A stretch of 64,000 nt of DNA from an uncultured Acidobacteriota bacterium (GCA_963702425.1 CAVPCQ010000019.1:112704-176703), one strand, 5' to 3'. Shown: positions 1,127 through 25,930, counted from the first letter of the stretch. Notes: generated by a model from the sequence alone, not told the origin. Program-made: numbers and translations.

Positions 1127-2632
1127 GTGCTGAAAAACGTAGGAGCGACCTGGGGCAAAGTCCTCGTCAGCATCCTGCTGTCGTACATCCTCACGCCCTT
1201 CATCATCTCGACGCTCGGCCAGGAGCGCTATGGGGCCTGGGTCTTGATCAACTCGATCATGGGGTATCTGGCGATCCTCGCGCTGGGAGTCCCCGCGGCG
1301 TCGGTACGCTACCTCTCGGAGGCGCTGGCCCGGAAGGATCTCGAGGACTTCAACCGGACATCAGGGGCTTGCGGAGGACTGTACGTTGTCCTTGGCGGCG
1401 CGGCGCTCGTTGCGACACTCCCGCTGTTCCTCTTTTTCACGACATACGATCTGGACGCCGCGGTGCGGGCCGACGCGTACCTTGCTTTTGTGCTCGTTGG
1501 CGCAGCGAGCGCCGTAGGATTCTACGCGCTGTTGCCTGCAGGGATCCTGAGCGCCAAGAGCGCATTCGTGGCGCTGAGCGGCATCCAGGTCTTCACCCAG
1601 GTTCTCCGTTTCGCGGTGACGATCGTCGGGCTTCGGATGGAGGCGTCGATCGCCCTGCTCGCAGCAATTCAAGTCGGTCTTGCGTTCGTTGAGTTCATCG
1701 TGTCGGCTATGTACTTGAGGCGCACGTATCCCGAGATTCGACTCGGCCGGCCGAGGTTCGACCCCGGGCGAATTCGGAAGATTTTCTCCTTCAGTGTCTA
1801 CGTGCTGCTCCTGAGCCTCGGGCTCCGGCTTCACTTCCAGACCGACGCGATCGTGATCGGCGGCCTCCTCGACGTCCGTGAAATCCCCTACTTCGATGTC
1901 GCGAACAGCCTGCTTCTGTATCTGATGGAGTTTGTCGTTGCCATTGGCGCCGTGTTGATGCCGGCCGCTTCGCGGCACGGCACTCTCGGCGAATGGAACG
2001 TGCTGCGGGACCTCTACTTCAAGTGGGCGAAGATCGCGGTTTCCCTGACGTGCGTCGCGGCGCTCTATCTCATGGTCTTCGGTCCGGCGTTCATCGGAAG
2101 ATGGATCGGTCCTTCCTTCACTGAACCCGCGGGGCTCGTGCTGCGGATCCTGGTCGTGGCAAACCTGCTGTTCCTCCCGGCCCGTGGCGTTGCGATCCCG
2201 CTTCTCCTGGGGATCGGCCAGGCGCGGGTGGCCATGTTCTCGTTTGCCGGTTTCGCCATCCTGAACCTCGTCGCCAGCCTGGCGCTGGCACGCCCGCTCG
2301 GGCTCGCCGGGGTGGCTATCGGCACGGCGGTGCCGATCGCGCTGTTCGCGGTTCATGTGCTCGCCTACGCGGCCCGGAAGGTGCAGGCGCGGGTCGGCTC
2401 CTTCTTCCTCTACGTTTTCGGCAGGAACCTGCTCGCGCTCGGGGCAGGGCTCCTGATACTGCGAGCGTCCCAGGTGTGGTTCGACATGAGCGGCTATCCG
2501 GGGCTCGTAGCGGCGGGGTTCTTCACCGTTGGCCTTGCGGCCGTACTCTGGGTCGGGTTCGTGCACCGTCGCGACCCGCACCTCGATCTGTTCGCAGAGG
2601 TTCGCGCGAGGCTTGGGCGAGGTGCCGCATGA
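1127..2632 (+). CDS. Oligosaccharide flippase (Wzx/MOP family)
   Basis: About 500 aa polytopic membrane protein; TPFIISTLGQERYGAW and QTDAIVIG motifs; EPS context. Confidence 0.85.
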   Translation: MLKNVGATWGKVLVSILLSYILTPFIISTLGQERYGAWVLINSIMGYLAILALGVPAASVRYLSEALARKDLEDFNRTSGACGGLYVVLGGAALVATLPLFLFFTTYDLDAAVRADAYLAFVLVGAASAVGFYALLPAGILSAKSAFVALSGIQVFTQVLRFAVTIVGLRMEASIALLAAIQVGLAFVEFIVSAMYLRRTYPEIRLGRPRFDPGRIRKIFSFSVYVLLLSLGLRLHFQTDAIVIGGLLDVREIPYFDVANSLLLYLMEFVVAIGAVLMPAASRHGTLGEWNVLRDLYFKWAKIAVSLTCVAALYLMVFGPAFIGRWIGPSFTEPAGLVLRILVVANLLFLPARGVAIPLLLGIGQARVAMFSFAGFAILNLVASLALARPLGLAGVAIGTAVPIALFAVHVLAYAARKVQARVGSFFLYVFGRNLLALGAGLLILRASQVWFDMSGYPGLVAAGFFTVGLAAVLWVGFVHRRDPHLDLFAEVRARLGRGAA

Positions 2633-3810
2633 CGGCGAGCTTGCTGCTGATTGCCTGGTTCCTCGTGGGGGGCGCCCTGGCCGCCGCGGCGGCGGAGATC
2701 GTATGCCGGGCCGTCCTGCGCGCTCGCCATCGGCGCTTCGTGTACATTCCGCGGTGGCGCGTTCAAGTCGAACTGAACCCAGATTACCACCCCGCACTGA
2801 ACGGCACCGTGATGTTCGAGACGAATCGGTTCGGGCAGCGCGGCGACGATCCGCCGGCTGGCGACGGCATCTTCCGAGTCTTGGCGTCGGGTGGTAGCGC
2901 AGTCGAGTGCTTCCTTCTCGATGGCCCCCGTTCTTGGCCGGCCGTTCTGGAGTCGGTCCTGTCGGAGCGCGAGGCTTGCGCGCTGCTCCACGCGCGCTGC
3001 GTTCACGTTGCCAACATCGGGCGCTCCGGGATCGACACGGAGAAACTCGCGGAAGTCTTTGAGTCGGGCACTTTTCCGGCAGATCGGTACGATATCGTCC
3101 TAATCATGACCGGCGCGGCGGACGTTCTCCGGTGGCTCGCCGCGGGCGCGGCCGCGGATCCGCCCGTCCCACAGCCATCGCTCGACGAGGTGTTCCACTG
3201 GCGAAGCGACTCGCTGTACGGGTGGAGGCCTTCGAGCGCCGCGTCAGTCAAGGTGGCGAAGATGCTCGTGCGCGCGTTCGTGCGTCCCGTCGAAACCCGC
3301 CGGGATGGCGGAGGCTGGATGATCGCGGCGCGTGCCTCTCGGGTAGCCACGACGAGTTTCATCGAGGACGTTCCGGATCCGGCGCCGATGTACCGTCACT
3401 ACGAGGAGGCGCTCGGGCGGGCGATCCGAGCGGCAGCACGGAGGGCCGACCGTGTCCTGGTCGTCGAACAAGCGTGGTTTGACCGGAATCCCACTCCGGA
3501 GGAGGCGCTCCAACTCTGGAACCCCGCCCTCGGGGCTCCGTGGAAGGACGGTGGCAAGGCGTTCTATTCCCATGACCTCGCGATGCGCCTCATGCGCGGA
3601 TTGACGGATGCGACGCGGCGGACGGCTGAGGCCTGCGGGGTCGAGTTCATGGATTTGCGGCCTCACGTGCCTGGCAACCGCGAAACCTTCTACGACATGT
3701 TCCACTACACGAACGAGGGGGCGGCTATCGTCGGCCGAGCAGTTGCGGATCGGATACTCGAGATCAGCAGCCGATACGAATCCGCTTCCCGCGTGGATGA
3801 GCGTGCATGA
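2629..3810 (+). CDS. SGNH/GDSL hydrolase with N-terminal TM anchor
   Basis: GGSAVEC block I, NIGRSG block II, FYDMFHY block V; ATGA overlap with the flippase stop. Confidence 0.75.
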   Translation: MTASLLLIAWFLVGGALAAAAAEIVCRAVLRARHRRFVYIPRWRVQVELNPDYHPALNGTVMFETNRFGQRGDDPPAGDGIFRVLASGGSAVECFLLDGPRSWPAVLESVLSEREACALLHARCVHVANIGRSGIDTEKLAEVFESGTFPADRYDIVLIMTGAADVLRWLAAGAAADPPVPQPSLDEVFHWRSDSLYGWRPSSAASVKVAKMLVRAFVRPVETRRDGGGWMIAARASRVATTSFIEDVPDPAPMYRHYEEALGRAIRAAARRADRVLVVEQAWFDRNPTPEEALQLWNPALGAPWKDGGKAFYSHDLAMRLMRGLTDATRRTAEACGVEFMDLRPHVPGNRETFYDMFHYTNEGAAIVGRAVADRILEISSRYESASRVDERA

Positions 3811-4811
3811 GAGTACTGGTCGTCGAGAACCTGTGGGATAGCGAGCCCATCTGGTGGCTGCGCCACATCGTCACCGAGGCCCGCGACTGCGAGCTCGATG
3901 TGCTCAAACTCTCCGAAGAACGCCCACTGCGCGCTGCTCTCCCGATCATGCGCCTCTGGATCTCAGTCCTCCGGGATTACGACGCGGTGGTCACCCAGCA
4001 GGACGGATACTCGACCCTCGCCCTTGCGTTCCTTCGTCGCTTTGCGCTCCGCCGCGACTGCCGCCACTACGTCAACGAGTTTATTACTCGCGAGCCCGAG
4101 TCGTCGCTCTACTCCAGGCTCAAGTACGCCTTCCTCCGCTTCGCAATGCACTCTGTGCAGGGAGTGTTTTGCTGTTCCCGTCGAGAAACGACTCTCTACC
4201 CCCGAATCCTCGGGATGGATCCCTCGCGCTTCCACTTCGCGCCGCTCGCCACGGACCCCGCCTTCCTCGAGCAACCGGAGCAGGATCCGGGCGACTACCT
4301 CATCGCAGCGGGGAGGACCGGCCGAGACTACGCGACCTTGATCGACGCAGTGCGTGGGCTTCCTATTGGCGTCGTGCTCGTGGCTGCGCCGGGAAACCTC
4401 CACTCGATCACGATCCCGGAGAACGTCAGCGTCCGCACGAACATCCCGCTCCGCGACCTGCTCGCCCTAACGGCTCGGGCGAGATTCGCGGTCCTGCCCC
4501 TTCAGGATCGTCCGGTCTCCATCGGGCAGAGCGTTCTCCTTCAGGCCATGTCGCTCGGCAAGGCGACGATCGCGACCAGGACCACCGGAACCGAGGACTA
4601 CCTCCGGGACGGCGTCACCGGTTTCCTGGTCCCGCCTCGGGACTCGGCGGCCATGCGGAGCGCCATCGAGCGACTTGCCGGGGATCAGGCACTTGCGGAC
4701 CGCATGGGAGAGGCGGCGCGGCGGGAGGTGCGTTTGCGCCACCACCCGAGGATCCAGGCGACCCGGATTGCCTCGGTAGTCCGGCGGGACGGGGGGTCTC
4801 GCCCACCGTAA
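3807..4811 (+). CDS. GT4 glycosyltransferase
   Basis: AAGRTGRDY, LLQAMSLGKATIAT, DGVTGFLVPP; its TAA stop is supplied by the adjoining IS66 end. Confidence 0.85.
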   Translation: MRVLVVENLWDSEPIWWLRHIVTEARDCELDVLKLSEERPLRAALPIMRLWISVLRDYDAVVTQQDGYSTLALAFLRRFALRRDCRHYVNEFITREPESSLYSRLKYAFLRFAMHSVQGVFCCSRRETTLYPRILGMDPSRFHFAPLATDPAFLEQPEQDPGDYLIAAGRTGRDYATLIDAVRGLPIGVVLVAAPGNLHSITIPENVSVRTNIPLRDLLALTARARFAVLPLQDRPVSIGQSVLLQAMSLGKATIATRTTGTEDYLRDGVTGFLVPPRDSAAMRSAIERLAGDQALADRMGEAARREVRLRHHPRIQATRIASVVRRDGGSRPP

Positions 4812-5278
4812 GCGGTCCGGGAGCGGCGTTCTTCCCCTCGGCGTGACGGTCGTCTACGAATAGCCCCGCGCCCGGCGATCGGGCGGGCCGTGAAGACGGC
4901 GAGGAGCGGGGCGTGTCGGTTCTCGAGACAGGCGTGTGCGGCGGAGCGAGCGGGACTGGGCGGCGATCCTGCGGCGGTACGAAGCGAGCGGGTTGGGTTC
5001 GCGGGCGTTCTGCCGGCAGGAAGGGGTGGCGGCGAGCAGCTTCCAGCGCTGGCGCCAGCGACTCCGCGGCCAGCGAGCGGTGCGTCGTCGCGCTCGGTTC
5101 GTGGAGCTGGTGCCGCCGCCGGCACCGGAGACGGCCGTGGCCAGGCCCGGCAGTTCCGGCTGGTCCCTGGAGCTGGAGCTCCCCGGCGGCGTCATCGTCC
5201 GTTGGGGGGGGAGCCGATGTTCCTGTCGTCGGCACCGCCGCGGATCCTGGCCTACCGCGAGCCGGTGGACATGCGCAA
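4808..5278 (+). mobile_element. IS66 (type A) left end, tnpA and truncated tnpB
   Basis: GTAAGCG terminus; tnpA from 4936 (WAAILRRYEASGLGSRAFCRQEGV...LELELPGG); tnpB MFLSSAPPRILAYREPVDMR cut at 5278; same end recurs at 7945 and 18347. Confidence 0.85.
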
Positions 5279-7799: not shown

Positions 7800-7944
7800 G
7801 CGGAACGAGATCTCGTCGACGCCGATGACGTAGAGGTTCTCCAGGCGCTGGGGATCGAGGCGCTCCTGGACGATCCGCGTCACGATCGTGCCGACGGTCC
7901 GCCAGTCGATGCCCATCAGCAGCCGCACCGCCGTTCGGTCCACC
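7800..7944 (-). pseudogene. ISL3-family transposase fragment
   Basis: IDWRTVGTIVTRIV...LYVIGVDEISFR. Confidence 0.65.
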
Positions 7945-8001
7945 GTAAGCGGTCCGGGAGCGGCGTTCTTCCCCTCGGCGTGACGGTCGTCTACGAATAG
8001 C
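7945..8001 (+). mobile_element. IS66 type A left-end fragment
   Basis: 57 bp identical to 4808-4864. Confidence 0.85.
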
Positions 8002-8322
8002 TGGCAGTTCCGGCGATCGTGATCACGCGATCCGGGATCGTAATCACTGATTCCGCTGATGGTGATCACGCGTCGGAGCGAAGCGACGGTCGGTTCGTTC
8101 TGGTTTCGCCTCCTGTCAAGGCTCGGCAGATTCTAACGCGGGATCCCGATCGGTTGAAGGCTGGGTGGCAGCAGGGCCTGTGGGGCCTGTGGGCGGCGCG
8201 GCCGTTCGCGCTGTCCAAGGGGCGGTGGGAAACGCGGCGTCATGCGTTTTCCAGGGCCCCGCCAGGATCCGTAGGCCGTCGCGCGTCAGCGCGAGTTCGG
8301 AGCGCAGCGACGATCATCGGGT
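8002..8322 (-). mobile_element. IS21-family right end
   Basis: TGGCAGTTCCGGCGATCGTGATCAC terminus with GATCAC repeats; reverse-complement homolog of 25612-25930, which follows an istB. Confidence 0.75.
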
Positions 8323-8402
8323 TGTGGAGCGTCACTCTGGGGTCCGGAAGTGAAGGGGCGACGTTTCGGACTGTGCTGCTGAAGAGAGCCGTGGCGGGCT
8401 AA

Positions 8403-9695
8403 GGGCTTGTAACGAAATTAGGTGACTAGTTGTGATCTCCCGCGAGGAAGGATACTGTAGTTCCAGTCGCCGTGGAATTGTTTCTGGCTTCAGGTTGATC
8501 GCGCCCATCTGTGCCGCCGTCGGCTTGACTGCTTTGGGATACGTTCTGACAGTGTCCAGTACACATCGTACCTTGAGTCCGGTCGCCGTGGTTCGGGTGG
8601 CCGCGATGTGGTTGACGACTGCCGCATGGGTGAGCAATGGCTGGCCGCGCCAGTTTTCTGTGATGAACGAGAACAGCCGGTGCTCGATTTTGTTCCATTT
8701 GCTCGTGCCCGGAGGAAGATGGCAGACCGAAATCATCAGTCCCGTCTGTCGGGCCAACTGCTGGAGCCCCCATTTCCAAAGTCGGATGCGGGGGCCGTTG
8801 CTGCCGCCGCCGTCGGCGGTGATGAGCAGTGACGGGGCACGCTGGTAATGCTGACGACCCAACTCGCCCCACCAGCGACGGATGGTCGCCGCCACGAAGG
8901 CGGCGGTATCGTGGTCCACCCCCACGCTGACCCAGCCCTGATTGCGACCAAGTCAAACACGCCGTAGGGGATGGCCTCGCCGGTCCGGGCTCCAGGAAGT
9001 CATGGACCGGCAGTACCGGAGATCCTTGCGGTCGCCAGTTTTGGCCCGGATTCTTGAAACCGTCCACCAGTTCTTTCTTTTTCGTGTCCACTGAGATGAC
9101 CGGTTGGCCGTGCTTCAACTGGGGCTTCTCACGCGGGTTGATGTGCTCGAACTGAGCGTCTCGGTCGGGGTGGGCTGGCCCCCTCATAGCGTCTTCCGGT
9201 TGGCCTGCAGGCTGTAGTCCAGATCGTGTTCAAGCCCCGCCACCAACGTATGGCTGACTTCGAACCCCTGCCCGTTCAACTCACCGGCCAAATGGCGCGT
9301 ACTCTTGCTCGTCCACCGCAACGGAGACTCGGGATCCCGCGTGTTACTGGCTCGACCAACTCTTCCAACGCCGCCGCCAGCCCGGGCACCACAATGGTCA
9401 TCCGTTTTCGGCCCGCACCAGGACGGCGCACCCGGTCGGCGGGCAACGGCTTCTTCTGGGTCAGCTCTTCCAGCCCGCGAACAATTGTGTTGCGCGCAAG
9501 GCCGGTCGCGCGGGCGACAACGGCAATACCCCCACGCCCAAGCGCTTGCGCCTCCGCACCAGCCCACAACCGGCGATGGCGCTCGTCCATCGAAGGCAGC
9601 AAAGCGCGATACTTCGCGCGAATTCCTTGTTCGACTTCCATGAAACCAAAATCCCAGAGACTGGCCTTATGGTCAAGTTATATCTTTACGAGCCC
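8403..9695 (-). mobile_element. ISAzo13-family IS, transposase frameshifted
   Basis: PVISVDTKKKELV, LLITADGGGSNG, PPGTSKWNKIEHRLFS spread over several frames; IRs GGGCTTGTAACGA / GGGCTCGTAAAGA; TAA direct repeats at 8400-8402 and 9696-9698. Confidence 0.9.
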
Positions 9696-9772
9696 TAAGC
9701 TGCGCGTCGCGTTTTCCGGCACGCAGGTTAGCCCGCCACGGAGGAGCGTGGCGATCGAGGGTCAGTCTCGTT

Positions 9773-10561
9773 TTGCGGCGCGATGCCCCTCGAGCGCCAC
9801 CACCCAGCGTCAGTTTACTCGACCTCGAGCTCGGGGACTATTGCGTCGCGATCGAGCGCCGCGGCTGGGAGGTGGCGGGGCTGATCGCGGAGTCCGGGGT
9901 GTGCTGTCCCCGTTGCGGGTCGTCTCCGGGGTGCACGCGGGCTCATGCGTGGCGCCACCGCGGTCCGGTGCGCGACTTGGCCGCCCATCGGGTGTTCGCG
10001 GACGTCCCGGTGCTGCGGGTGATGTTCTGTACCGGGGCCACGATCTCGTTGATGCCGGCGGCGTTGTGGCGTGGGCGAAGCACGATCGCCTCGGTCGTGG
10101 CCGCGGCCGGGCAACTGCTGGCCCACGGACTCGAGCGCGGCCACGACTGGGTGCGCGTTCAGATCCCCGGCGGGCCTGGCGTCTCGCGCAGCACGCTCGG
10201 TCGGTGGCGTGAGGCGGTCGTGCCGCGCGTGTCGGCCGCGGCGCTGGCGCTCGTCGCGCTGCCGCCAGGGGCCGATGGGCAGTCCTGCGCGGAGCCGGTG
10301 GAGAGGATGGCGCGGCTCGCGGCCGCGCTGACGCCGCGCGTGCTGGCCGGCTTCCGAGCCCGCTTCGGCCGGGCGGTGCTCGACCTGGCGCGCCCCCTCG
10401 CGCGGCGCGAGGTCCACGACGCCAGCGCTACCGATCCCGGGTCGTCTCGCTCCGGCCCCGCCACCCGCAACGGGCGGACCCCGTCTTCCGCGCGGCGCAA
10501 GGTCCCGCTCGCGCCCCCGGGGACCGCCCCGGGACGGGCGCGCGAAGGAGACGACGGATGA
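9773..10561 (+). CDS. Zn-finger/HTH transposon-associated protein (DUF6431-like)
   Basis: CPRCG...H...VPVLRVMFC..TISLMP and SRSTLGRW HTH-like segment; ATGA-coupled to the transposase; true start may be GTG 9748 with a frameshift. Confidence 0.55.
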   Translation: MRRDAPRAPPPSVSLLDLELGDYCVAIERRGWEVAGLIAESGVCCPRCGSSPGCTRAHAWRHRGPVRDLAAHRVFADVPVLRVMFCTGATISLMPAALWRGRSTIASVVAAAGQLLAHGLERGHDWVRVQIPGGPGVSRSTLGRWREAVVPRVSAAALALVALPPGADGQSCAEPVERMARLAAALTPRVLAGFRARFGRAVLDLARPLARREVHDASATDPGSSRSGPATRNGRTPSSARRKVPLAPPGTAPGRAREGDDG

Positions 10562-11385
10562 TTGAAGACAAGTCCCGGCCCCCACGACCCGGCGCCCGTG
10601 ATTGGGCGGTGTTTCGGTACGGACTGATCAGCGAGGCCCTGCGTCCGCTCGCCGGTCAGCCGGTCTCCGAGCTGCTGGCGCGGCGGGCGGCGCAGCAGCA
10701 CGCCCTGCCCGACGGCATGCTGCGCCGCTTCAGCGCCGCGACCCTGCGCAGCTGGCTGATCCGCTACCAGCGCGAAGGGCTCGACGGCCTGTTGCCGCGC
10801 AGCCGCGCCGACAAAGGCACCTTCCGCAAGATCGACGACGATCTCGGCGAGCTGATCGCCCGGCACCGCGTCCAGCACCGGCAGCTCTCGGTCAAGCTCT
10901 TCTAGCAGGTGTTGCATCAGGACGACGTCCTGCCCGCCGGCAAGCGGGTCTGCGAGGCCACCCTGCGCCGCTTCCTCCGACTGCGCGGGCTCGACCGCCC
11001 GGTGCGCGGGATCGACAAGGCCCGGGCCAAGTACGAGATGCCCCACCCCAACGACCTCTGGATCGGTGACTTCATGCACGGCCCGTTGGTCGGTACGGGA
11101 TCGTCGAAGCGCAAGGCGATCCTCTGCGGGATCATCGACGATCACTCCCGCGTCCTCGTCGGCGGCCGCTTCGCGCTCGGCGAAGAGACCGCCGACCTGC
11201 TCCACACGCTGCGCGACGCCCTGGCCACCTTTGGGGTGTGCAAGCGCTTCTACTGTGATTCTGTGCCGCGGCACAGAATCACAGTTCTGTGCCCTGGCCC
11301 GTTATGTGGCGTGGCCACGCGCAATGCGGCGTCGTGATCGCCTGGCCATCGATTCCGCGTGGCCACCGCCACATAACGGGGCTCG

Positions 11386-12399
11386 TCAAAGGGCGTCGAG
11401 CCAGTCGAGCAGAGCCGCGTCGCTATTCCATGACTTCTTGCCTTGTGACTTCTGCATGGCCACTGGCGGTGCGCAGGAAGCGAGTGCTGCCTCCTTGATT
11501 CGCGCGGTGATTTCCGCGTAGCGGTTGGTCGTTTCGAGGCGAGCATGACCAAGCCACGCACGGATGACGTTGATCTCGACGCCTGCCTCGAGCAGGTGAA
11601 CGGCGGTCGTGTGACGGAAGACATGCGGGGTGACGCGCCGCCCGCGTCGGCGGGAATCGGCATCGAACGCGGCAGCATGCCTTCGAACGACCTTGTGAAT
11701 ACCGAAGCGCGTAAGCGGGCCGCCGACGGTGGACCGAAACACCGGGTCATCGGGGGCGGCGTTGCCGCCCGTTTCGTCGAGGAGCGCGTGCAGTGCGGTA
11801 GCCGTTTCCTGCCACAGTGGGCATGTACGCCACTTGTCACCCTTGCCGTGCAGCCGCACACGGTACGGACCATCGAGGTCGAGGTTACCGACGCGCAGGT
11901 CGGCGACCTCCTGTGCCCGTGCCCCGGTGTTGTAGAGGAAGAGCAGCAGCGTGCGGTCGCGTGCGGCCGTGCGCGGCCCGAGCGGCCATCGATCGAACAG
12001 CAGCTCGACGTCGCGCTGCTCGAGATGGAACGTTTCGGGCGGCGCAACGCGCTTGCCGGGGATGCGCATCACCTGCTCGGCGACGGGCAGCATCTCTGGC
12101 ACCCGCCCCCCGATGTAGTTGAAGAATGAGTGCAGGATCGCGAGCCGCTGGTTGCGCGTGCGGGGGTGGTTATGCCGGTCCTGCTCGAGCGCGTCGAGAA
12201 AGTGCAGGACGCTGTCGGCCGTGAGCGTTTCGAGCGGCAGCCGCGCGATGCTGTCCCTGGCTCCTTGGGCAACGGAGCATAGGTAGAGGCGGATGCCGTC
12301 GCGATAGCTGGCGATCGATGAGGGACGAAGACCCCGTGTCGAACGCAGGTGGTCGAGGAAGTACGACCGGACGAGTTGGCCGAGCGTGAGGGTGCTCAT
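11386..12399 (-). CDS. Tyrosine recombinase RitC
   Basis: TRNQRLAILHSFF, LYNTGARAQE, GKGDKWR, PHVFRHT, LGHARLETTNRY. Confidence 0.9.
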   Translation of the reverse strand: MSTLTLGQLVRSYFLDHLRSTRGLRPSSIASYRDGIRLYLCSVAQGARDSIARLPLETLTADSVLHFLDALEQDRHNHPRTRNQRLAILHSFFNYIGGRVPEMLPVAEQVMRIPGKRVAPPETFHLEQRDVELLFDRWPLGPRTAARDRTLLLFLYNTGARAQEVADLRVGNLDLDGPYRVRLHGKGDKWRTCPLWQETATALHALLDETGGNAAPDDPVFRSTVGGPLTRFGIHKVVRRHAAAFDADSRRRGRRVTPHVFRHTTAVHLLEAGVEINVIRAWLGHARLETTNRYAEITARIKEAALASCAPPVAMQKSQGKKSWNSDAALLDWLDAL

Positions 12400-13361
12400 C
12401 GTAAACGCCCGATGGCGGAGGAGGCTTCGAAGCGCCGACCGCCACGTAGAGCAGATCAGGGGTGATCGTGAGGTAGACCGCGGTGGACTCGGGTCTTGCG
12501 TGGCCCATGAAGGTCGAAAGCTGCAGCAGGCGTGCTCCGGGATCGGCGCCGGAACGGTACCAGCGGAGTAGCGTATTCACGGCGAACGAATGACGCAGAT
12601 CGTGGACCCGCGGTGCCGCCAGCGACTCCAGGCCCAACTGCGGCACGATCTGCCGAAACACCCGACCGATCGTCTGTCGTCTCAACCGCGCGGTCGACCA
12701 CACCGTCAGGAGCGGGGCATCGTCGACGAGTCCGCCATCGATGTTGCGGCGGCGCGCAAGGTAGGACGTGAGCGCCTCATGCAATCGCGGACCGAAAGGG
12801 ACCAACCGATCCTTCCCGAACTTGGTGTTGCGCACGACGAGAAGCCGACGCCGCGGATCGAAGTCCGACACATCGAAGCGACAGACCTCGCCGACGCGCA
12901 GCCCGAGGCCGTAAAGCAAGGCGAAGGCGAGATGGAAGCTCTGTCCGCGGAGACGCGTGCCGGGCAGATCGGGGAGCGCGGCCGCGAGTTGCAACAGCCG
13001 ACTTGCGTGCTCCGGACCGAACAAGACGGCATGCCGCCGGACCCTCGCGTCGCGGCAGCACCCGCAACGGCGAGTGCTCCAGGGTGCCTCGCGCGACGAG
13101 CCACTCGAAGAAGCGGCGCAGGACGCCGACGAGGTGGTTGAAGCTTCGAGGATGATGGCGTGGCCGCGAGCAGAGGAAGGCCTCGACGATCGTGGGCGTG
13201 ACCTCCGAGAGCGAGTGAACGCCCGCGGCAGACAAGCAGCGATCGAACAGGGCGAGCGCCGCGGCCTCGGTGTCGAAGCGTCGCCCGAGCGCACGCCGGT
13301 GCGCGACGAAGCGAGCGGCTTCGCCCGCCACCGGACCGGACGAGCCTTCGGCGGGCCTCAT
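12396..13361 (-). pseudogene. Tyrosine recombinase RitB, frameshifted (near 13040 and near the 3' end)
   Basis: LYGLGLRVGE, TKFGKDRLVP, HDLRHSFAV, LSTFMGH..PESTAVYL; N-terminus in another frame. Confidence 0.85.
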
Positions 13362-14617
13362 AGGAGGTCCTCGATGTCGCCGAGCGCGACCTCGCGCAGG
13401 TCTTCGACAGCCGCCTTGGCGTAGATCCGCGTCGAGGATGTCTGGCGGTGGCCAAGGAAGTCACCGACCACCTGGAGTGTGAATCCGGCGTCCACCAACC
13501 GTTGTGCGCACGTGTGCCGCAGCGTGTGCGACCCAGCGTGCCGCACCTCCACGCCCGCCCGTTTCAGCACTCGGGTCGCGCGGGAAGAAACGATCTGGTG
13601 CGTGACAGCGACACGCGGGGCCCGCGCGGAGAGGAAGACGTGACGCGCGATCGTCTGCGGTCGTCCGCGCCGGATGTAGTCGATCAATGCATCGGCGACA
13701 TCGGCTCGCAACGGATACGCCGCGGCGTGGCCCGCCTTGCGTGAGCGCACATGCAATGTAGCAGTCCGCCAATCCAGGTCGTCGAGCGTCAGAGCGGCGA
13801 CTTCGCTGGCCCGCAGCCCATATACAGCGAGCAGCAGCAACATCGCGAGATCCCGGCGCCCCAGAGCCGATCGGGTGTCGATCGACCGCAGCGTCCGCGC
13901 GAGGTCCTCGGTGCTGATCGACCGGGGAACGCCGGAGAGAGCGTACCGGAGTGGCCCGTCAACGGTCGCAGCGAGGTCCCGAGCGATGACTCGCTCGCGG
14001 AACAGGTAGCGAAGGAACGAGCGCAGGGCGGAGCAGGTCGGGCCGAGAGAATTCGCTGCGACCGTCGATCTGCGCTCCTCGATGAACAGGTCCAGGATCG
14101 CGGGCGTGAGTCCGGAGGCATCGCCGACACCACGGCCGCCGATGAAGCGCTCGAAGAACGACAACTGCGTTGCGTAGCCAGCGACTGTCGCAGGCGCCAA
14201 TCCCCGCTCGTGCCGCAGATGTCGCTCGAAACCGGGTGCCCAACGCGACAGCGGGAACTCATCCGGCATGTCCGCAACTCCGTCCGACCGAACGACTCGA
14301 AGGAAGTGCCCGACGACGCTGCGGATCTCGGCAAGGTAGCGGCTGCGTGGCACGGAAGCAGCGTGTGACCTCGATCGCCGCCGCCAACACGCCTCGGCAA
14401 ATGGCTGAAGGAGCTTTTCCAAACCACCGATCTCCGCGACGTGCCTTCTGTGGGCAAAGTCCCCCAACCGAACGAGCAACGGCACCCGACGGTGAATGCA
14501 CCGCGGGCTGTACTGGTGCGCGTCAAGCCAGCCCACGTACGTCTCGACGGCATTCTTGAGCCACGAAGCCTCGATGCGATCGATGGTTTCGGGTAGGGCG
14601 AAGAATCGGTCGAGCAT
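13358..14617 (-). CDS. Tyrosine recombinase RitA
   Basis: RRDLAMLLLLAVYGLRASE, HTLRHTCA, LGHRQTSSTRIYAK; ATG at 14617. Confidence 0.9.
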   Translation of the reverse strand: MLDRFFALPETIDRIEASWLKNAVETYVGWLDAHQYSPRCIHRRVPLLVRLGDFAHRRHVAEIGGLEKLLQPFAEACWRRRSRSHAASVPRSRYLAEIRSVVGHFLRVVRSDGVADMPDEFPLSRWAPGFERHLRHERGLAPATVAGYATQLSFFERFIGGRGVGDASGLTPAILDLFIEERRSTVAANSLGPTCSALRSFLRYLFRERVIARDLAATVDGPLRYALSGVPRSISTEDLARTLRSIDTRSALGRRDLAMLLLLAVYGLRASEVAALTLDDLDWRTATLHVRSRKAGHAAAYPLRADVADALIDYIRRGRPQTIARHVFLSARAPRVAVTHQIVSSRATRVLKRAGVEVRHAGSHTLRHTCAQRLVDAGFTLQVVGDFLGHRQTSSTRIYAKAAVEDLREVALGDIEDLL

Positions 14618-15379
14618 GGTCCGTCTCCTTTTCCCCGATGCGCGGGGAGGCGGGCCATGCTCACTCTGCTGGTCCCCGTTATGTGGCGGTGGCCACGCGG
14701 AATCGATGGCCAGGCGATCACGACGCCGCATTGCGCGTGGCCACGCCACATAACGGGCCAGGGCACAGAACTGTGACAACGGCCCGGCCTTTTCCTCCCA
14801 GTACCTGGCCGAGACCTGTGCCCGGATCGGCGTCACGCTGCTGCACTCCGAGCCCTACGACGCCCCCTCGCGCGGCAAGATCGAGCGCTTCTTCCGCACC
14901 GTCCGCCTGCGCTTCCTGCCGCTCGTCACCGACGACGAGCTCGTCGGGCTCGAGACACTCCAGGAGCGCTTCGAGCGCTGGCTGCGCGACGACTACCACT
15001 TCAAGCGCCACAACGGCATCGGCATGAAGCCGATCGACCGCTATCTCGCCGGCGCCCAGGAAACCCTCGTCGAGCGCCTCGCCCCCGAAGAACTCGACCA
15101 CGCCTTCATGGGACGCCTCGTCCGCGTCGTCCGCAACGACGCCACCGTCAAGATCGACGGCACCTTCTACGAGGTCCCGCCCGACTTCATCGGCGCCCGC
15201 GCCGACCTGCGCTTTCCCGTCGGACGGCCCGACGAGCTCTTCCTCTACCAGGACGACCGCCCGGTCGGACCGATCAAGCCGGTCGATCCGGCCCACAACG
15301 CACGCTTCCACGCCCCGCCGGTCAGCGTCTCCTACGCCGACCTCGCGCGCCGCCGGCAGGAAGCAGACGGGGAGCGGCC

Positions 15380-16174
15380 ATGATCGAAGCCCGCTTCGGC
15401 CTCAAACGCCGCCCCTTCGACAAGCAGATCGCGACCCGCGACCTCTATCCCTGGCCCGGACTCGACGAACTCGCCGCCCGCTTCGAGATGATCAAGCAGG
15501 CCCGCGGCATCATGCTCGTCACCGGCGAGCCCGGCACCGGCAAGACCGTCGCCCTGCGCCGCTTCGTCGACTCCCTCAACCACGAGCACTACAAGGTCGC
15601 CTACCTCCCGCTGTCCACCGTCACCAACCTCGACTTCTACGTCCAGCTCAATCGCGCCCTCGGGGGACAGGACGTCCGCGGCAAGAGCCTGCTCTTCGAA
15701 GAAATCCAGAAAGGGGTCGCCCAGCTCGCCGCCCAGGGCAAGATCCCCGTCGTCGCCCTCGACGAGGCCGATCTGCTCCGCTCCCCGCTCTTCGACGAGC
15801 TGCGCATCCTGCTCAACTTCGAGATGGACTCCAAGGACCCCCTCATCACCGTCCTCGCCGGGCAGCCCCAGCTCCTGGCCAAGCTCGCCCTCCGCGTCCA
15901 TCTCCCTTTCCGCCAGCGCGTCGCCATGCGCTACCGCATGCCCCCGCTCGACGAACACCACACCAAGGGCTACGTCGAACACCACCTGCGCCTCGCCGGC
16001 CGCAAACAACGGCTCTTCACCGACGAAGCCACCCTCCAACTCTTCGTCCAGTCCGGCGGCGTCCCGCGCGCGATCAACAACCTCGCCCTCACCGCCCTGT
16101 ACAACGCCGCGGCCCAGAGCAAGGACCTCGTCGAACTCGACGACGTCGTCGCCGCCGCCAAGGAGATCGCCTGA
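15380..16174 (+). CDS. ExeA-like AAA+ ATPase (transposition ATPase)
   Basis: Walker A GEPGTGKT, Walker B ALDEAD, LAGQPQL, SGGVPRAIN; ATGA-coupled to the transposase. Confidence 0.9.
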   Translation: MIEARFGLKRRPFDKQIATRDLYPWPGLDELAARFEMIKQARGIMLVTGEPGTGKTVALRRFVDSLNHEHYKVAYLPLSTVTNLDFYVQLNRALGGQDVRGKSLLFEEIQKGVAQLAAQGKIPVVALDEADLLRSPLFDELRILLNFEMDSKDPLITVLAGQPQLLAKLALRVHLPFRQRVAMRYRMPPLDEHHTKGYVEHHLRLAGRKQRLFTDEATLQLFVQSGGVPRAINNLALTALYNAAAQSKDLVELDDVVAAAKEIA

Positions 16175-16437
16175 TGACCGTCCACGGACTCCCCGACGAT
16201 GACGAGCGCGATCGGATCCTGAGCTACCTCGCCGAGCGCCTCCCCGGCTACCCCTTCGACGAACACGTCGACGGACCCTTCGTCGACGAGCTGCTCGACG
16301 ACTTCCCGCTGCTCGACATCCTCGAGCAGATCAAACGCTTCCGCTGGTACCACGCCAACCAGAGCCTCGCCCTCGCCCGCAATCCGCGCGGCGCCCTCCG
16401 TCGCTGGATCGGACGCACCTACGCCCAGACCGTCTGA
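16174..16437 (+). CDS. Small conserved hypothetical protein (87 aa), possibly DnaT-like helical domain
   Basis: TGATG coupling to the ATPase; three homologs in the window (16174, 17499, 24523). Confidence 0.75.
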   Translation: MTVHGLPDDDERDRILSYLAERLPGYPFDEHVDGPFVDELLDDFPLLDILEQIKRFRWYHANQSLALARNPRGALRRWIGRTYAQTV

Positions 16438-16462
16438 CCGCTCGCACCAGCCTCGCGGCTTC

Positions 16463-16500
16463 AGGCCAGCGTGACGGATCCTCGATCGTCACGCTGGCCT
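16463..16500 (+). terminator. 14-bp perfect stem-loop after the small ORF
   Basis: AGGCCAGCGTGACG / CGTCACGCTGGCCT with a 10-nt loop, followed by CTTCTT; conserved in the second copy. Confidence 0.55.
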
Positions 16501-16658
16501 CTTCTTCCTGGCGTCCCCGCAATCCGCAGCAAAGACGGAAGCCACGCTGCGCTGCCTGCACGCAGCAAGCCGGCCGTCACACTGCAATGCATGCCATCCA
16601 ACAATCTGTCTCGCAGACCTGCAGGCCATCCGGCGGCAGCAGAATGTGACGGGTTACA

Positions 16659-17823
16659 CTCCGCCCGCATGCGCTCGACAGCTACGACACGCTGCAGCCG
16701 GAAGGGACCGATGACGACCCGCGCTGACGACGGTCTGCTGGCCCGCGCCCGGCGTCTCGGGCTGTACGGCCTGCTCGCCCGCTGGGACGAGGTCCAGGGG
16801 CAGGACTGGCTCCCCGGCCTGCTCGGCGCCGAAGAACACGAGCGCCGGCGCCGCGGCTTCGAACGCCGGCTGCGCCGGGCCTGGCTGACCCGCTTCAAGC
16901 CCATGGCCGACTTCGACTGGGACTGGCCCAAGAAGATCGACCGGGAGCAGGTCGAGGAGCTCTTCGCCTGCGCTTCCTCGACGAGGCCGCCAACGTGGTC
17001 TTCTGTGGCCCCAACGGGGTCGGGAAGATCATGATCGCCAAGAACCTCGCCCACCAGGCCGCCCTCGCGCCGGTCACACCGTCCGCTTCATCACCGCCAG
17101 CGACACTGCTCAACGACCTCGCCGCCCAGGACGGACCCGGCGCGCTCAAGCGTCGCTTCGTCGCTACGCCCGCCCGCGTCTGCTCGGCATTGACGAGCTC
17201 GGCTACCTGGCCTACGACAACCGCACGCCGACCTGCTCTTCGAGGTCGTCAGCCGGCGCTACGGCCAGGCCTCGACGATCGTGACGACCAACAAGACCTT
17301 CGCGAATCGAACCAGGTCTTTCCCAACGCAGCCTGCGTCGTCACCCTGGTCGACCGCCTCGTCCACAACTCCGAGATCGTGCCGATCGAGGGCCAGCCGT
17401 ATCGGCTGAAGGAGGCCCAGGAGAAGGCGGCCGCACGGGCCCGTGAGCGCGCCCATCGCAAGTCCGCCCCCGCCCCAAACGCTGAAGGAGGATCCGCTGT
17501 GGCTCACGTACCACTCCCCGACGAAACCGCTACCGCGGTCCTCGACTACCTCGCGCAGAACCTGCCCGGCTACCCCTCGACCCCGAGGTCGATACGGCCT
17601 TCGTCGATGAACTCCTCGACGACTTCGCCGACCTCGATGTGCTCGAGCAGCTCAAACGCTTCCGCTGGTACTACGACAACCGGCCGCTCGCGAACATCCG
17701 CAACCCCCGCGGCGCGATCCGCGCCTGGATCCGCCGCGCCCAGCGCTGATCCCCGCCGCCAACGCCGATGGCGGGCTCACGCGCCAACAGCCAGAACGCC
17801 GCGCTTCCTGACAGCCGGCAACA
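16659..17823 (+). mobile_element. IS21-family 3' part: istA tail, frameshifted istB, small ORF, right end
   Basis: LRPHALDSYDTL istA-like tail; istB from 16711 with FKPMADFDWDWPKKIDR, GPNGVGK, DELGYL, DRLVHNSEIVPIEG; terminus ...GACAGCCGGCAACA. Confidence 0.8.
17499..17749 (+). pseudogene. Homolog of the 87-aa small ORF (1-nt deletion near 17577)
   Basis: AAGGAGG RBS and GTG start; corrected translation ...LPGYPFDPEVDTAFVDELLDDFADLDVLEQLKRFRWYYDNRPLANIRNPRGAIRAWIRRAQR. Confidence 0.8.
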
Positions 17824-17846
17824 CACGTCACAGTGTCCACCTGATC

Positions 17847-18084
17847 AAGGTGTCGGCGGCCGTCCGAGCGGCGGGACCCGGCGCCCGCCGGAGGCGTCGC
17901 TCCCACCAGCGCAGCGTCCAGACCGGCACCCCAGAGCGCCGCGACAACTCCGCCCAACTCCAGCCCCCGCGCTCGCGGCGCGACAACCATGACCTCATCC
18001 GCTCCGGATCTTGGCGTCGTCTCATGACCGCCACGATCCCTCATGGCGCGCGTCAGCGGAAGACGGGCATCACACGACGGTTAC
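17847..18084 (-). mobile_element. IS66 (type B) left end and truncated tnpA
   Basis: GTAACCGTCG terminus; near-identical to 26132-26369. Confidence 0.8.
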
Positions 18085-18245
18085 CAGTGATCACGATGCC
18101 CGGAATCCCTGATCGCGATCCCGGAATCCCTGATCAGGATCCCGGAATCCGCGATCACGATGCCCGGAATTGGTGATCACGATCCCGGAATCCCTGATTA
18201 CGATGCCCCGGAACGAGCGATCACGCGATGGTCCGGCAACCGCCA
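18085..18245 (-). repeat. IS21-family end with tandem 21-22 bp subterminal repeats
   Basis: About six or seven GATCACGAT(G)CCCGGAATCCCT-like units ending in ...CCGGCAACCGCCA, like the ends at 8002 and 25930. Confidence 0.75.
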
Positions 18246-18347
18246 CCGCTCCTCGCCGTCTTCACGGCCCGCCCGATCGCCGGGCGCGGGGCTATTCGTA
18301 GACGACCGTCACGCCGAGGGGAAGAACGTCGCTCCCGGACCGCTTAC
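18246..18347 (-). mobile_element. IS66 type A left-end fragment
   Basis: Reverse complement of 4808-4909 with one mismatch. Confidence 0.85.
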
Positions 18348-18598
18348 GCACCTCGCCAGTTCAACCTGGCATTCGACGTCGCGGCGGTGCGGAGCATGAC
18401 ACCGGAGGATCGGGCGCGGGCGGTCAGGTTGACCCCTACACCTACCTGGTCGACGTATTGCAGCGGGTCGACAGCCACCCAGCGAGCGACGTGGCCGCCT
18501 TGACCCCGCGGCTGTGGAAGGAGCAGTTCGCCGCGGCCCCCCGGCGGGGCTGAGCATTTCGACCCGGCTGTCCACTACGCCGTTCGCTGACCGCTTAC
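18348..18598 (+). mobile_element. IS66 tnpC C-terminal remnant and right end
   Basis: VDPYTYLVDVLQRVDSHPASDVAALTPRLWK; ends ...GACCGCTTAC. Confidence 0.75.
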
Positions 18599-24288: not shown

Positions 24289-25295
24289 TGTAACCCGTCA
24301 CATTCTGCTGCGGCCGGATGGCCTGCAGGTCTGCGCGACAGATTGTTGGATGGCATGCCTTGCAGCGTGACCGCCGGCTTGCGGCTTGCAAGCAGCGCAG
24401 CGTGATCTTCAGCGTTGCGGCGGATTCGGGCGCTCGCAGCGGGCGGCGGCGGAAAGAGAAGGCCAGCGTGACGATCGAGGATCCGTCACGCTGGCCTGAA
24501 GCCGCGAGGCTGGTGCGAGCGGTCAGACGGTCTGGGCGTAGGTGCGTCCGATCCAGCGACGGAGGGCGCCGCGCGGATTGCGGGCGAGAGCGAGGCTCTG
24601 GTTGGCGTGGTACCAGCGGAAGCGTTTGATCTGCTCGAGGAGGTCGAGCAGCGGGAAGTCGTCGAGCAACTCGTCGACGAAGGGTCCATCGACGTGTTCG
24701 TCGAAGGGGTAGCCGGGGAGGCGCTCGGCGAGGTAGCTCAGGATGCGTTCGCGCTCGTCATCGTCGGGGAGTTCGTGGACGGTCATCAGGCGATCTCCTT
24801 GGCGGCGGCGACGACGTCGTCGAGTTCGACGAGGTCCTTGCTCTGGGCCGCGGCGTTGTACAGGGCGGTGAGGGCGAGGTTGTTGATCGCGCGCGGGACG
24901 CCGCCGGACTGGACGAAGAGTTGGAGGGTGGCTTCGTCGGTGAAGAGCCGTTGTTTGCGGCCGGCGAGGCGCAGGTGGTGTTCGATGTAGCCCTTGGTGT
25001 GGTGTTCGTCGAGCGGGGGCATGCGGTAGCGCATGGCGACGCGCTGCCGGAAAGGGAGGTGGACGCGGAGGGCGAGCTTGGCCAGGAGCTGGGGCTGCCC
25101 GGCGAGGACGGTGATGAGGGGGTCCTTGGAGTCCATCTCGAAGTTGAGCAGGATGCGCAGCTCGTCGAAGAGCGGGGAGCGGAGCAGATCGGCCTCGTCG
25201 AGGACGACGACGGGGATCTTGCCCTGGGCGGCGAGCTGGGCGACTCCTTTCTGGATTTCGTCGAAGAGCAGGCTCTTGCCGCGGACGTCCTGTCC
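24289..25295 (-). mobile_element. Second, partial copy of the four-gene transposon (ATPase 3' part, small ORF, right end)
   Basis: Reverse-complement match to about 15664-16658, with substitutions and a diverged stretch in the end region. Confidence 0.9.
24523..24786 (-). CDS. 87-aa small ORF, second copy
   Basis: MTVHELPDDDERERILSYLAERLPGYPF...RRWIGRTYAQTV. Confidence 0.75.
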   Translation of the reverse strand: MTVHELPDDDERERILSYLAERLPGYPFDEHVDGPFVDELLDDFPLLDLLEQIKRFRWYHANQSLALARNPRGALRRWIGRTYAQTV

Positions 25296-25930
25296 GCCGC
25301 GGCGACGGCTCGTCCGGGCGCCTGCTCGCCCGGCTCGCCAAGCTCGATCTGCTGGTGATCGACGACTGGCTGCTCTCGCCGCTCCAGGACGCCGAGCGCC
25401 GCGACCTGCTCGAGGTGATCGAGGACCGTGCCGAGCGCGGCTCGACACTCCTAGCCGGCCAGCTCCCGGTCAAGGCCTGGCACGAGGTGATCGGCGAAGC
25501 GATGCTCGCCGAGGCGATCCTCGACCGCCTCGTCAACCGCGCGCACAAGATCGATCTCAAAGGACCCTCGCAACGCGAGATCCGCAGTCCCCTCCGCGGT
25601 GGAGACAAGGCCCGATGACCGTCGCTTCGCTCCGACCCCGCGCTCACGCGCGCTGGCCTGTGGATCCTGGCGGGGCCGTGGAAAACGCATGACACCGCGT
25701 TTCCCACCGCCCCTTGGACGGCGCGAACCACCGCGCCGCCCACAGGCCCCACAGGCCCTGCTGCTGCCCTCGCTTCAACCGACCGAAATCCCGCGTTAGA
25801 ATCGCCCGAGCTTCGACAGGAGGCGAAACCAGAACGAACCGACCGTCGCTTCGCTCCGACGCGTGCTCACGATCAACGGAATGGGTGATCACGATCCCGG
25901 ATCAGGCGCTCACGATCGCCGGAACCGCCA
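25296..25930 (+). mobile_element. IS21 istB C-terminal fragment and right end
   Basis: LAKLDLLVIDDWLL...EAILDRLVNRAHKIDLKGPS; ends ...CCGGAACCGCCA. Confidence 0.85.

Follow-up and report, generated by a model that had tools for sequence, protein, structure and literature searches.

Examination of a 64,000-nucleotide stretch of DNA from an uncultured Acidobacteriota bacterium (GCA_963702425.1, CAVPCQ010000019.1:112704-176703, hereafter the window) revealed, at positions 8323 to 16658, what is very probably a degraded autonomous transposon of the Tn6049 type, about 3.5 kb long. The element is bounded by short TGT...ACA inverted tips and carries four overlapping, translationally coupled genes on the same strand, coding for a predicted DNA-binding protein (open reading frame 1, ORF1), a DDE transposase, an AAA+ ATPase and a small protein (ORF4). 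It is a distant member of the Tn6049 kind and not a new kind of element.

Structure and boundaries of the element

The contig that carries the window (C19) belongs to a genome of 5.1 Mb in 42 contigs with a G+C content of about 67%. Two later inserts interrupt the copy, and with both subtracted the transposon measures 3522 bp (81 + 1559 + 1882), in agreement with the length of about 3.52 kb proposed from the sequence alone after removal of an ISAzo13 element and a recombinase (RIT) element. Its features are as follows.

8323-8335, plus strand: left terminal inverted repeat, TGTGGAGCGTCAC; homology of the flanking IS21 copy stops at 8322, and the tip fits the family consensus
8389-8399, plus strand: subterminal inverted repeat, arm 1 (CCGTGGCGGGC); pairing seen in relatives
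9731-9741, plus strand: subterminal inverted repeat, arm 2 (GCCCGCCACGG), followed by GGAGG; pairs with arm 1
9773-10561, plus strand: ORF1, Zn-ribbon and helix-turn-helix (HTH)-like, divergent DUF6431 protein; start codon uncertain
10558-11258, plus strand: N-terminal 233 codons of the transposase with HTH and first catalytic Asp (Pfam HTH_32, rve; NCBIfam IS481 model)
14777-15383, plus strand: C-terminal 201 codons of the transposase with catalytic Glu (GKIERF) and Mu-type C-terminal domain (Pfam rve_3, Mu-transpos_C_2)
15380-16174, plus strand: AAA+ ATPase, 264 amino acids (aa), Walker A GEPGTGKT, Walker B LDEAD (Pfam AAA_22)
16174-16437, plus strand: ORF4, 87 aa, type A; shares 49-50% identity with its counterparts in L008 and the G386 element (both introduced below)
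16465-16499, plus strand: perfect 13-bp stem-loop after ORF4 (GGCCAGCGTGACG ... CGTCACGCTGGCC), read from the sequence
16646-16658, plus strand: right terminal inverted repeat, ...GTGACGGGTTACA; a second copy shares the end base

The inverted tips and the order of the four coupled genes, first proposed from the sequence alone, were confirmed, and the reading frames meet at the predicted junctions ATGA (ORF1/transposase), ATGA (transposase/ATPase) and TGATG (ATPase/ORF4). Both boundaries were upheld as well. On the left, nucleotides 8002-8322 are 97% identical to four other copies of an IS21 insertion sequence (IS) in the genome, and this identity breaks off at 8323; on the right, the right end of the truncated second copy (24289) falls at the same terminal base as position 16658, which also marks the end of metagenome contigs from two sequencing runs (X1 and X2). 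The family tip consensus, TGTARCCYGYCAC, was derived from 8 related loci.

Between the left tip and ORF1 sits a conserved inverted repeat (CCGTTGCGGGC, about 37 nt, GCCCGCAACGG, then GGAGG). Its arms pair in 86% of the cells in 8 relatives, against 28-40% with the partner slid, and three pairs are changed on both sides among these relatives in a compensatory manner; the window and L008, a related metagenome contig, share the same T>G / A>C double change. The repeat could serve as an operator or as an RNA hairpin. In L004, a copy found in a metagenome-assembled genome (MAG), the corresponding repeat lies at 5146-5203, and a perfect 16-bp hairpin occupies the place equivalent to the window stem-loop 16465-16499. 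A repeat search of L004 for subterminal transposase-binding repeats found nothing convincing besides the tips and one hairpin.

Comparison with Tn6049

Cupriavidus metallidurans surfaced in a tblastn search of plasmids with the ATPase (121 plasmid records). Its plasmid pMOL28 carries a block of genes overlapping by 4 bp and annotated as a 181-aa 'transposase', a 479-aa 'IS481 family transposase', a 277-aa AAA ATPase and a 90-aa hypothetical protein. The tips printed for Tn6049 in the accessible text of PMC4739549 bound this block (found twice, against 0.03 expected), which places Tn6049 at 1753 to 5269 of the pMOL28 locus L055, a length of 3517 bp. TATGG stands on both sides as a 5-bp duplication; the same text gives 12-bp imperfect inverted repeats and a 4-bp duplication for Tn6049. 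The transposon is present in 12 copies in C. metallidurans CH34 and also occurs on the Pseudomonas aeruginosa plasmid pHS87a.

Tn6049 resembles the window element in its length of about 3.5 kb, its TGT...ACA tips, the order of its four genes and their 4-bp overlaps, as well as in the roles predicted for these genes (a small Zn-ribbon ORF, an IS481-related DDE transposase, an AAA_22 ATPase of the 'gspA'/ExeA-like type and a 90-aa ORF). Duplications of 4-5 bp, as in Tn6049, flank one of five window-lineage copies and 9 of 13 copies of the G386 element; the window copy has none. It differs in the tips beyond TGT, in host phylum and in sequence. BLASTP comparisons were made with L001, a 3664-bp metagenome contig holding an intact four-gene copy with perfect 12-bp tips (TGTAGCCTGCCA): its transposase is 28% identical to that of Tn6049 (E 2e-33) and its ATPase 26% (E 1e-13), and the window ATPase is 28% identical to the Tn6049 ATPase (E 4e-17). 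In ORF1, the Zn motif and the 'TLKRWRQ' ('TL.RW') helix of Tn6049 align at matching places, although homology is not demonstrable (hhalign 5%), and Tn6049 ORF4 gave no BLASTP match to window ORF4. The sequence-only reading had implied a novel element, an idea that was to be dropped should a described IS or transposon with the same four genes prove to be a close match. This novelty fails, since Tn6049 has been named and shares genes, order, overlaps, tips and size; the match is close in architecture but not in sequence, where identity is only 26-28%. No account of the mechanism of Tn6049 transposition was found in the searchable literature.

Transposase and ATPase among known systems

The transposase pieces of the window match Pfam HTH_32/HTH_28, rve, rve_3 and Mu-transpos_C_2, and their best curated model is NCBIfam IS481 (NF033577; 31, 48 and 49 bits). 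The intact L001 transposase (435 aa) scores 177 bits with this model, below the 224-bit cut-off, and 85, 57 and 50 bits with the IS3, ISNCY_2 and IS21 models, respectively; its catalytic triad D171, D234 and E270 has the DD(35)E spacing, and the IS481 model covers the protein only to about residue 322. Judged by these matches, the catalytic core resembles IS481 more than Mu and only the C-terminal domain is Mu-type, so that the earlier description of a Mu-like DDE transposase is right for the C-terminal domain but not for the core.

The window ATPase matches Pfam AAA_22 (4.5e-24) and the ExeA-like NCBIfam model pepcterm_ATPase, the latter at 133 bits and thus far below the cut-off of 324; IstB_IS21 and TniB are absent among its 19 Pfam hits. 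Its nearest solved structure is MuB (8xvb, E 0.0039). BLASTP against the L001 transposase and ATPase gave E values of 2e-33 and 1e-13 for Tn6049, 2e-14 and 4e-04 for Tn552 (compared through a pMW2 transposase reading frame of only 276 aa), 0.004 and 1e-08 for Mu, 0.006 and 1.7 for Tn402, and 3.2 and 2.7 for the IS21 of the host genome.

Tn552 and the ISBli29/ISArsp9/ISArsp14 group (ISNCY in ISfinder) combine, according to the accessible text of PMC6305408, a DDE transposase with an ATP-binding protein and TGT tips; they differ by a resolvase, cargo, the lack of a DUF6431 gene and printed duplications of 7-10 bp. Staphylococcus was not among the ten commonest genera in the ATPase tblastn search of the 121 plasmid records. 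Mu and Tn7/Tn5053 likewise have a DDE transposase with a Mu-type C-terminal domain, an AAA+ protein acting on target DNA, TGT...ACA ends and a 5-bp duplication, whereas the core of the present element is nearer to IS481 and its comparisons with MuA (E 0.004), TniA (0.006), TniB (1.7) and TniQ (hhalign 0.1%) are poor. The unit contains no TniQ/TnsD-like gene, no TniB Pfam hit, no TnsA-like nuclease, no resolvase and no phage genes. IS481 shares the best-scoring curated model (177 bits for L001, 255 bits for a Geobacillus relative), TGT tips and short duplications, but consists of one gene with no AAA+ partner, whereas the present element has four coupled genes including an AAA+ ATPase. IS21 also has a DDE and AAA+ pair encoded by overlapping genes, and IstA too contains Mu-transpos_C_2; it has no ORF1, and the ATPase of the element has no IstB_IS21 match. 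The sequence-only reading had rejected both IS21 and Tn7 as homes for the element, rightly so on these results, which speak against Tn5053 as well.

Cousin elements and conserved gene trios

Intact relatives exist in other genomes. In one genome of the window's phylum (G386), a 3451-bp element with this gene set of four is present 13 times; its transposase, ATPase and ORF4 are 40, 42 and 50% identical to those of the window lineage. Twelve of the 13 copies are 99.8-100% identical, and perfect target duplications flank nine of them (five of 5 bp, four of 4 bp); by eye, two of the other copies agree at 4 of 5 positions, and the last two lack a duplication. The duplicated sequences vary between copies and are often CTAG-like, which resembles CTAG, the target printed for the IS481-type ISRe46 in the accessible text of PMC6794481. 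The G386 element is evidently active now. Its copies lie at loci L050-L053 and L075-L083; the L051 copy is interrupted by a 1.25-kb insert, and the L052 and L081 copies have an identical left flank. A second genome (G231) holds a 4457-bp version with tips TGTAACGCGTCAC and an AAA_25 gene where the small ORF4 would stand, and two of its three copies with both flanks show 6-bp duplications. These cousin elements have transposases 35-40% identical to the window lineage.

Further trios of a DUF6431 gene, a DDE transposase and an ATPase in the same order were found on Geobacillus plasmid pGeo12a (annotated as DUF6431 protein, 'IS481 family transposase' and AAA ATPase), on pRHL3 of Rhodococcus jostii RHA1, in Kitasatospora and in others. 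Their transposases are 34-35% and their ATPases 35-40% identical, and their first gene is of the same family, as a chain of profile comparisons shows; the second Zn motif of the Geobacillus protein is CxxC where that of the window lineage is C-G. The Geobacillus, Rhodococcus and Kitasatospora trios are known from automatic annotation alone, and apart from the Tn6049 papers no paper was found in the literature that describes a DUF6431-DDE-ATPase unit as a transposon family.

The order ORF1-transposase-ATPase and the 4-bp overlaps are kept from 80% down to 28% transposase identity, across Bacillota, Actinomycetota, Pseudomonadota, the window's phylum and Eisenbacteria-type MAGs. Tn6049, the Bacillota and Actinomycetota trios and the sediment lineage of the window form one cross-phylum group, with a DUF6431 gene as its probable first gene; no description of this grouping was found in the searchable literature.

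ORF1 and ORF4

The window ORF1 combines a Zn-ribbon (CPRCG...C...H) with an HTH-like 'SRSTLGRW' helix, and its lineage is characterised by the motif C-x2-C-G-x3-C-A-x2-H ... R-V-x-F-C-x-G-x-T-x-S-L-x-P-A-x-L-W-R-G-R, then S-x-R-T-L-R-R-W. The protein is rare: a word-indexed search returned 6 proteins, and a full HMMER search of 1.84 billion representatives returned 32 cluster representatives. Neither ORF1 nor ORF4 matched Pfam (even at E<=10) or NCBIfam, the Pfam model of DUF6431 (PF20020) was matched by none of 28 ORF1 family members (E<=10), and the sole match of the ORF1 profile among solved structures was a TetR chain at E 0.39.

ORF1 is nevertheless a divergent DUF6431 protein, as a profile-profile chain through cousin elements shows, the direct comparison being weak. 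In hhalign, the ORF1 profile gave 96.8% (E 2.4e-10, 177 columns) with the ORF1s of three cousin elements, which in turn gave 98.1% (E 9e-14) with the Geobacillus DUF6431 alignment and 97.3% with the G231 ORF1; a reversed decoy gave 0.6%. The G231 ORF1 reaches 38 bits with PF20020 (gathering score 26.6), and one of the three cousin ORF1s reaches 28.4 bits. Compared directly, the ORF1 profile gave 6% with the single Geobacillus protein and 3% with its alignment, the motifs being aligned. The DUF6431 lead proposed from the sequence alone was right. Over its full length the ORF1 homologue P0006 shares only 45% identity, but its final 40 or so residues match the tail of the window ORF1 (10400-10561) exactly, a pattern suggestive of recombination between diverged elements where ORF1 meets the transposase gene.

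ORF4 is exchangeable: two types are known, in addition to the AAA_25 gene of G231, and the window ORF4 had no tblastn match in plasmids. The other type is found at 3019-3303 of L001, 8138-8410 of L004, and from 4263 of L003 and 3171 of L006. Like the fourth gene of Tn6049 (L055, 4810-5082), it ends in an acidic C-terminal stretch with an aromatic last residue (...DDADF, ...EEIEF, ...EDDLPF and ...ADNDF are examples), which we take to resemble the C-terminal tip of SSB. A paralogue of the window ORF4 lies at 17513-17740 (66% identity over 56 aa, 76% at the DNA level), directly downstream of a degenerate, frameshifted IS21-type istB (16660-17500), so that members of one small gene family follow transposon ATPases of two kinds. 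None of the intact IS21 copies in the genome has an ORF4-like gene, tblastn having found three places only.

Distribution of the window lineage

At least 339 transposase homologues were found at E<=0.001 among 8000 candidates scored. The best 120 of these share 63-100% identity with L001, and most come from contigs of some 2-4.7 kb, lengths to be expected of a repeat, which breaks assemblies. A first scan of genome contigs with the ORF1 alignment found no relative, and a scan of metagenomes found one locus. Scanning one genome per species yielded 17 loci, in MAGs labelled Eisenbacteria/Eiseniibacteriota, Krumholzibacteriia, Acidobacteria and Anaerolineae, and an ORF1 frame stands directly upstream of the transposase in all 17. 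L004 and L005 are the sole two copies in their MAG, 3489 bp long and mutually 100% identical; L004 interrupts a DUF433 gene with ATCCG duplicated on both sides, and L005 has no target duplication.

In the window's phylum, a transposase relative was present in 11 of 400 other genomes sampled, always at 30-42% identity, and the one same-genus genome available for comparison contained none; the element therefore probably arrived in its host horizontally.

Of 24 runs listed, 20 contain sampled 31-letter words of 9705-11258; these runs come from 14 studies, in which metagenomes of caves, sediment, freshwater sediment and soil were sequenced, habitats being confirmed for at most four runs. In 19 DNA runs, 0.23-0.50 of the sampled words were present. 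Contigs were compared for four runs, one of which is possibly the window's own source sample and in that case not independent; those of three (X1, X2 and X5, from three studies) join 11251 to 14770, skipping exactly 3518 bases with 7 ambiguous letters. The lineage of the element thus exists in nature without its recombinase insert. A joint skipping the ISAzo13 insert was not seen among 15 joints listed of 77, which is evidence neither way.

Mechanism, insertion sites and alternative readings

By analogy with other transposons, the transposase (with its IS481-clade DD(35)E core) would bind the TGTARCCYGYCAC tips through its HTH and expose CA-3'OH ends, and the ExeA/MuB-like ATPase would coat target DNA with ATP and recruit the transpososome through the Mu-type C-terminus of the transposase, as MuB, TnsC and TniB do. 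MuA and TnsB contact their ATPases via their C-termini. Strand transfer staggered by 4-6 bp would leave duplications of that length; copies without them (L005 and two to four of those in G386) are compatible with intramolecular events as well as with recombination between copies. ORF1, whose synthesis goes along with that of the transposase, would be a DNA-binding third subunit, most likely an end-binding factor or autoregulator acting on the left-end inverted repeat and, less likely, an adaptor that links target DNA to the ATPase. ORF4 would be a small exchangeable accessory gene.

Several points weigh against an autonomous Tn6049-type transposon working in this manner. The gene roles are assigned by analogy, and the likeness of the ATPase to MuB is weak (E 0.0039 against structures, 1e-08 in BLASTP). 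Window ORF1 and Tn6049 ORF1 gave 5% in hhalign (E 0.007), at which homology is not demonstrable. Target duplication is seen in one of five window-lineage copies with two flanks (L004) and in none of L005, L001, L008 and the window, L001 and L008 being short metagenome contigs with possibly chimeric flanks and L001 having 4 flanking bases only. Finally, with neither a resolvase nor a TnsA-type nuclease in the unit, movement may be copy-out/paste-in (as supposed for IS3/IS481), cut-and-paste or replicative.

The sequence-only reading had noticed that the three visible ends in the window abut other IS genes, and they do: an IS21 istB, the side of an IstB domain and an IS256-type gene. Among 12 flanks of the window lineage, five hold transposase genes (IS21 twice, IS256, IS5/DUF772 and IS66), two hold other genes (the abutting DUF433 gene and a LysE gene about 475 bp away) and five have no Pfam hit. 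Ten frames abut seven of the G386 copies: four are transposase genes (IS3 OrfA, IS66, IS4/5 and IS21 IstA-like), five are ordinary genes (sigma factor, Maf, nucleotidyltransferase, transporter and peptidase) and one has no hit. The share of transposase genes is suggestive of an excess over what IS density would predict, a comparison with no null model behind it, and a preference for landing in other mobile elements is hinted at but unproven; the same pattern could arise from local hopping, from assembly bias or because such sites tolerate insertions.

These flanks speak for reading ORF1 as a TniQ/TnsD-like target selector that bridges other mobile elements, or DNA structures in them, to the AAA+ ATPase and so directs the family to other transposons and islands, which we consider possible but unlikely. 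Transposase genes make up five of the seven window-lineage flanks with an identifiable gene and four of the ten in G386, where the copies are recent; ORF1 invariably opens the gene order, in coupling with the transposase gene, and Tn6049 is 'often associated with genomic islands' according to the accessible text of PMC2864759. The ORF1 profile, however, shows no likeness to the TniQ of R751 (hhalign 0.1%), the duplicated target sequences differ between copies, half of the G386 flanks are ordinary genes and L004 sits in a DUF433 gene. Furthermore, IS-rich regions tolerate insertions, local hopping is common and repeat-bounded contigs are biased.

It is improbable that the element is an IS481-type IS moved by its DDE gene alone, with ORF1, the ATPase and ORF4 as passengers, for instance a regulatory or addiction module. 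NCBI does label the Geobacillus and Tn6049 transposases 'IS481 family', members of IS481 are known to carry cargo (accessible text of PMC6794481), and ORF4 is exchangeable, with two types and an AAA_25 gene in its place; but ORF1, transposase and ATPase have kept their order and 4-bp overlaps down to 28% identity and across phyla, the transposase has a Mu-type C-terminal domain (Pfam Mu-transpos_C and Mu-transpos_C_2), and the nearest solved relative of the ATPase is MuB. A DDE gene with a Mu C-terminal domain beside an AAA+ gene and TGT/ACA tips would also fit a piece of a Mu-like prophage or of some larger transposon of the Tn7/Tn5053 type, but such an origin is very hard to reconcile with whole units of 3451-3522 bp with inverted tips and duplications in many copies, with the lack of phage genes, TnsA, TniQ and resolvase inside them, and with E values of 0.004 for MuA and 0.006 for TniA.

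As a decayed Tn6049-type transposon, the window copy is a wreck and matters little in itself; its relatives are more useful. Tn6049, known from genome descriptions only, joins a large cross-phylum group of small transposons, and DUF6431 gains a context as their probable first gene. The G386 element, with 12 near-identical copies, and Tn6049, with its 12 copies in CH34, are compact and evidently active test objects, which could show how different DDE lineages recruited AAA+ target-capture proteins and could test a preference for other mobile DNA. More speculatively, and with considerable doubt on our part, elements that unite a DUF6431 protein with an IS481-derived DDE transposase and an ExeA/MuB-like ATPase (Tn6049 and its relatives) may be a widespread fourth AAA+-assisted DDE lineage beside Mu, Tn7/Tn5053/Tn552 and IS21, in which DUF6431 would be an obligatory subunit steering insertion into mobile elements.

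Decay of the window copy and its surroundings

Three further features in and near the element were delimited.

8404-9694, minus strand: ISAzo13-family IS with a frameshifted transposase, foreign to the element (Pfam DDE_Tnp_ISAZ013, 5.9e-54)
11259-14776, minus strand: insert of 3518 bp with three tyrosine recombinases, foreign to the element (Pfam Phage_integrase)
24289-25302, minus strand: truncated second copy comprising ATPase residues 91-264, ORF4 and the right end; 95% identity

The window copy is dead because of three lesions: an insert splits the left end, another splits the codon of the second catalytic Asp of the transposase (FYCD|NG), and the transposase gene has an in-frame TAG at 10906-10908, which the sequence-only reading had not reported. 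An alternative genetic code for this TAG was set aside, as a lone stop in a copy broken by insertions needs none. The ISAzo13 insert, placed directly after arm 1 of the subterminal repeat, is flanked by the target duplication CTAAG (8399-8403 and 9695-9699) and has a 78% identical copy on contig C32. The recombinase insert has perfect inverted repeats of 103 bp, and its boundary is ambiguous by 6-7 nt (CTGTGA being common to both junctions).

The flanks of the window copy show no target duplication (CGGGT vs CTCCG). The left flank consists of the last codons of an IS21 istB, and the right end adjoins the upstream side of a degenerate IstB domain. The second copy is flanked by the N-terminal part of an IS256-type gene (Transposase_mut, 2.5e-08), and its internal break is joined to position 634 of an IS21 copy. 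Its origin as a simple deletion of the first copy was rejected, the first copy interrupting IS21 at position 321.

The region from 8 to 26 kb is a nest of IS21, IS630, ISAzo13, IS256 and recombinase-trio elements. The IS21 element is 2.84 kb long and encodes IstA (521 aa) and IstB (about 250 aa); full copies are present on contigs C17 (82059-84894), C23 and C40, and a partial copy on C36. Segments of it occur in the window at 8002-8322, 18075-18245 and 25297-25930, where its two ends lie 10 kb apart with its interior replaced. This IS21 mosaic (8002-18245), which holds the transposon, is bracketed by inverted segments of 58-108 bp that are 98-100% identical (7940-8001 and 18241-18348), a third copy of which lies near 4803-4913 (4803-4864 and 4807-4913).

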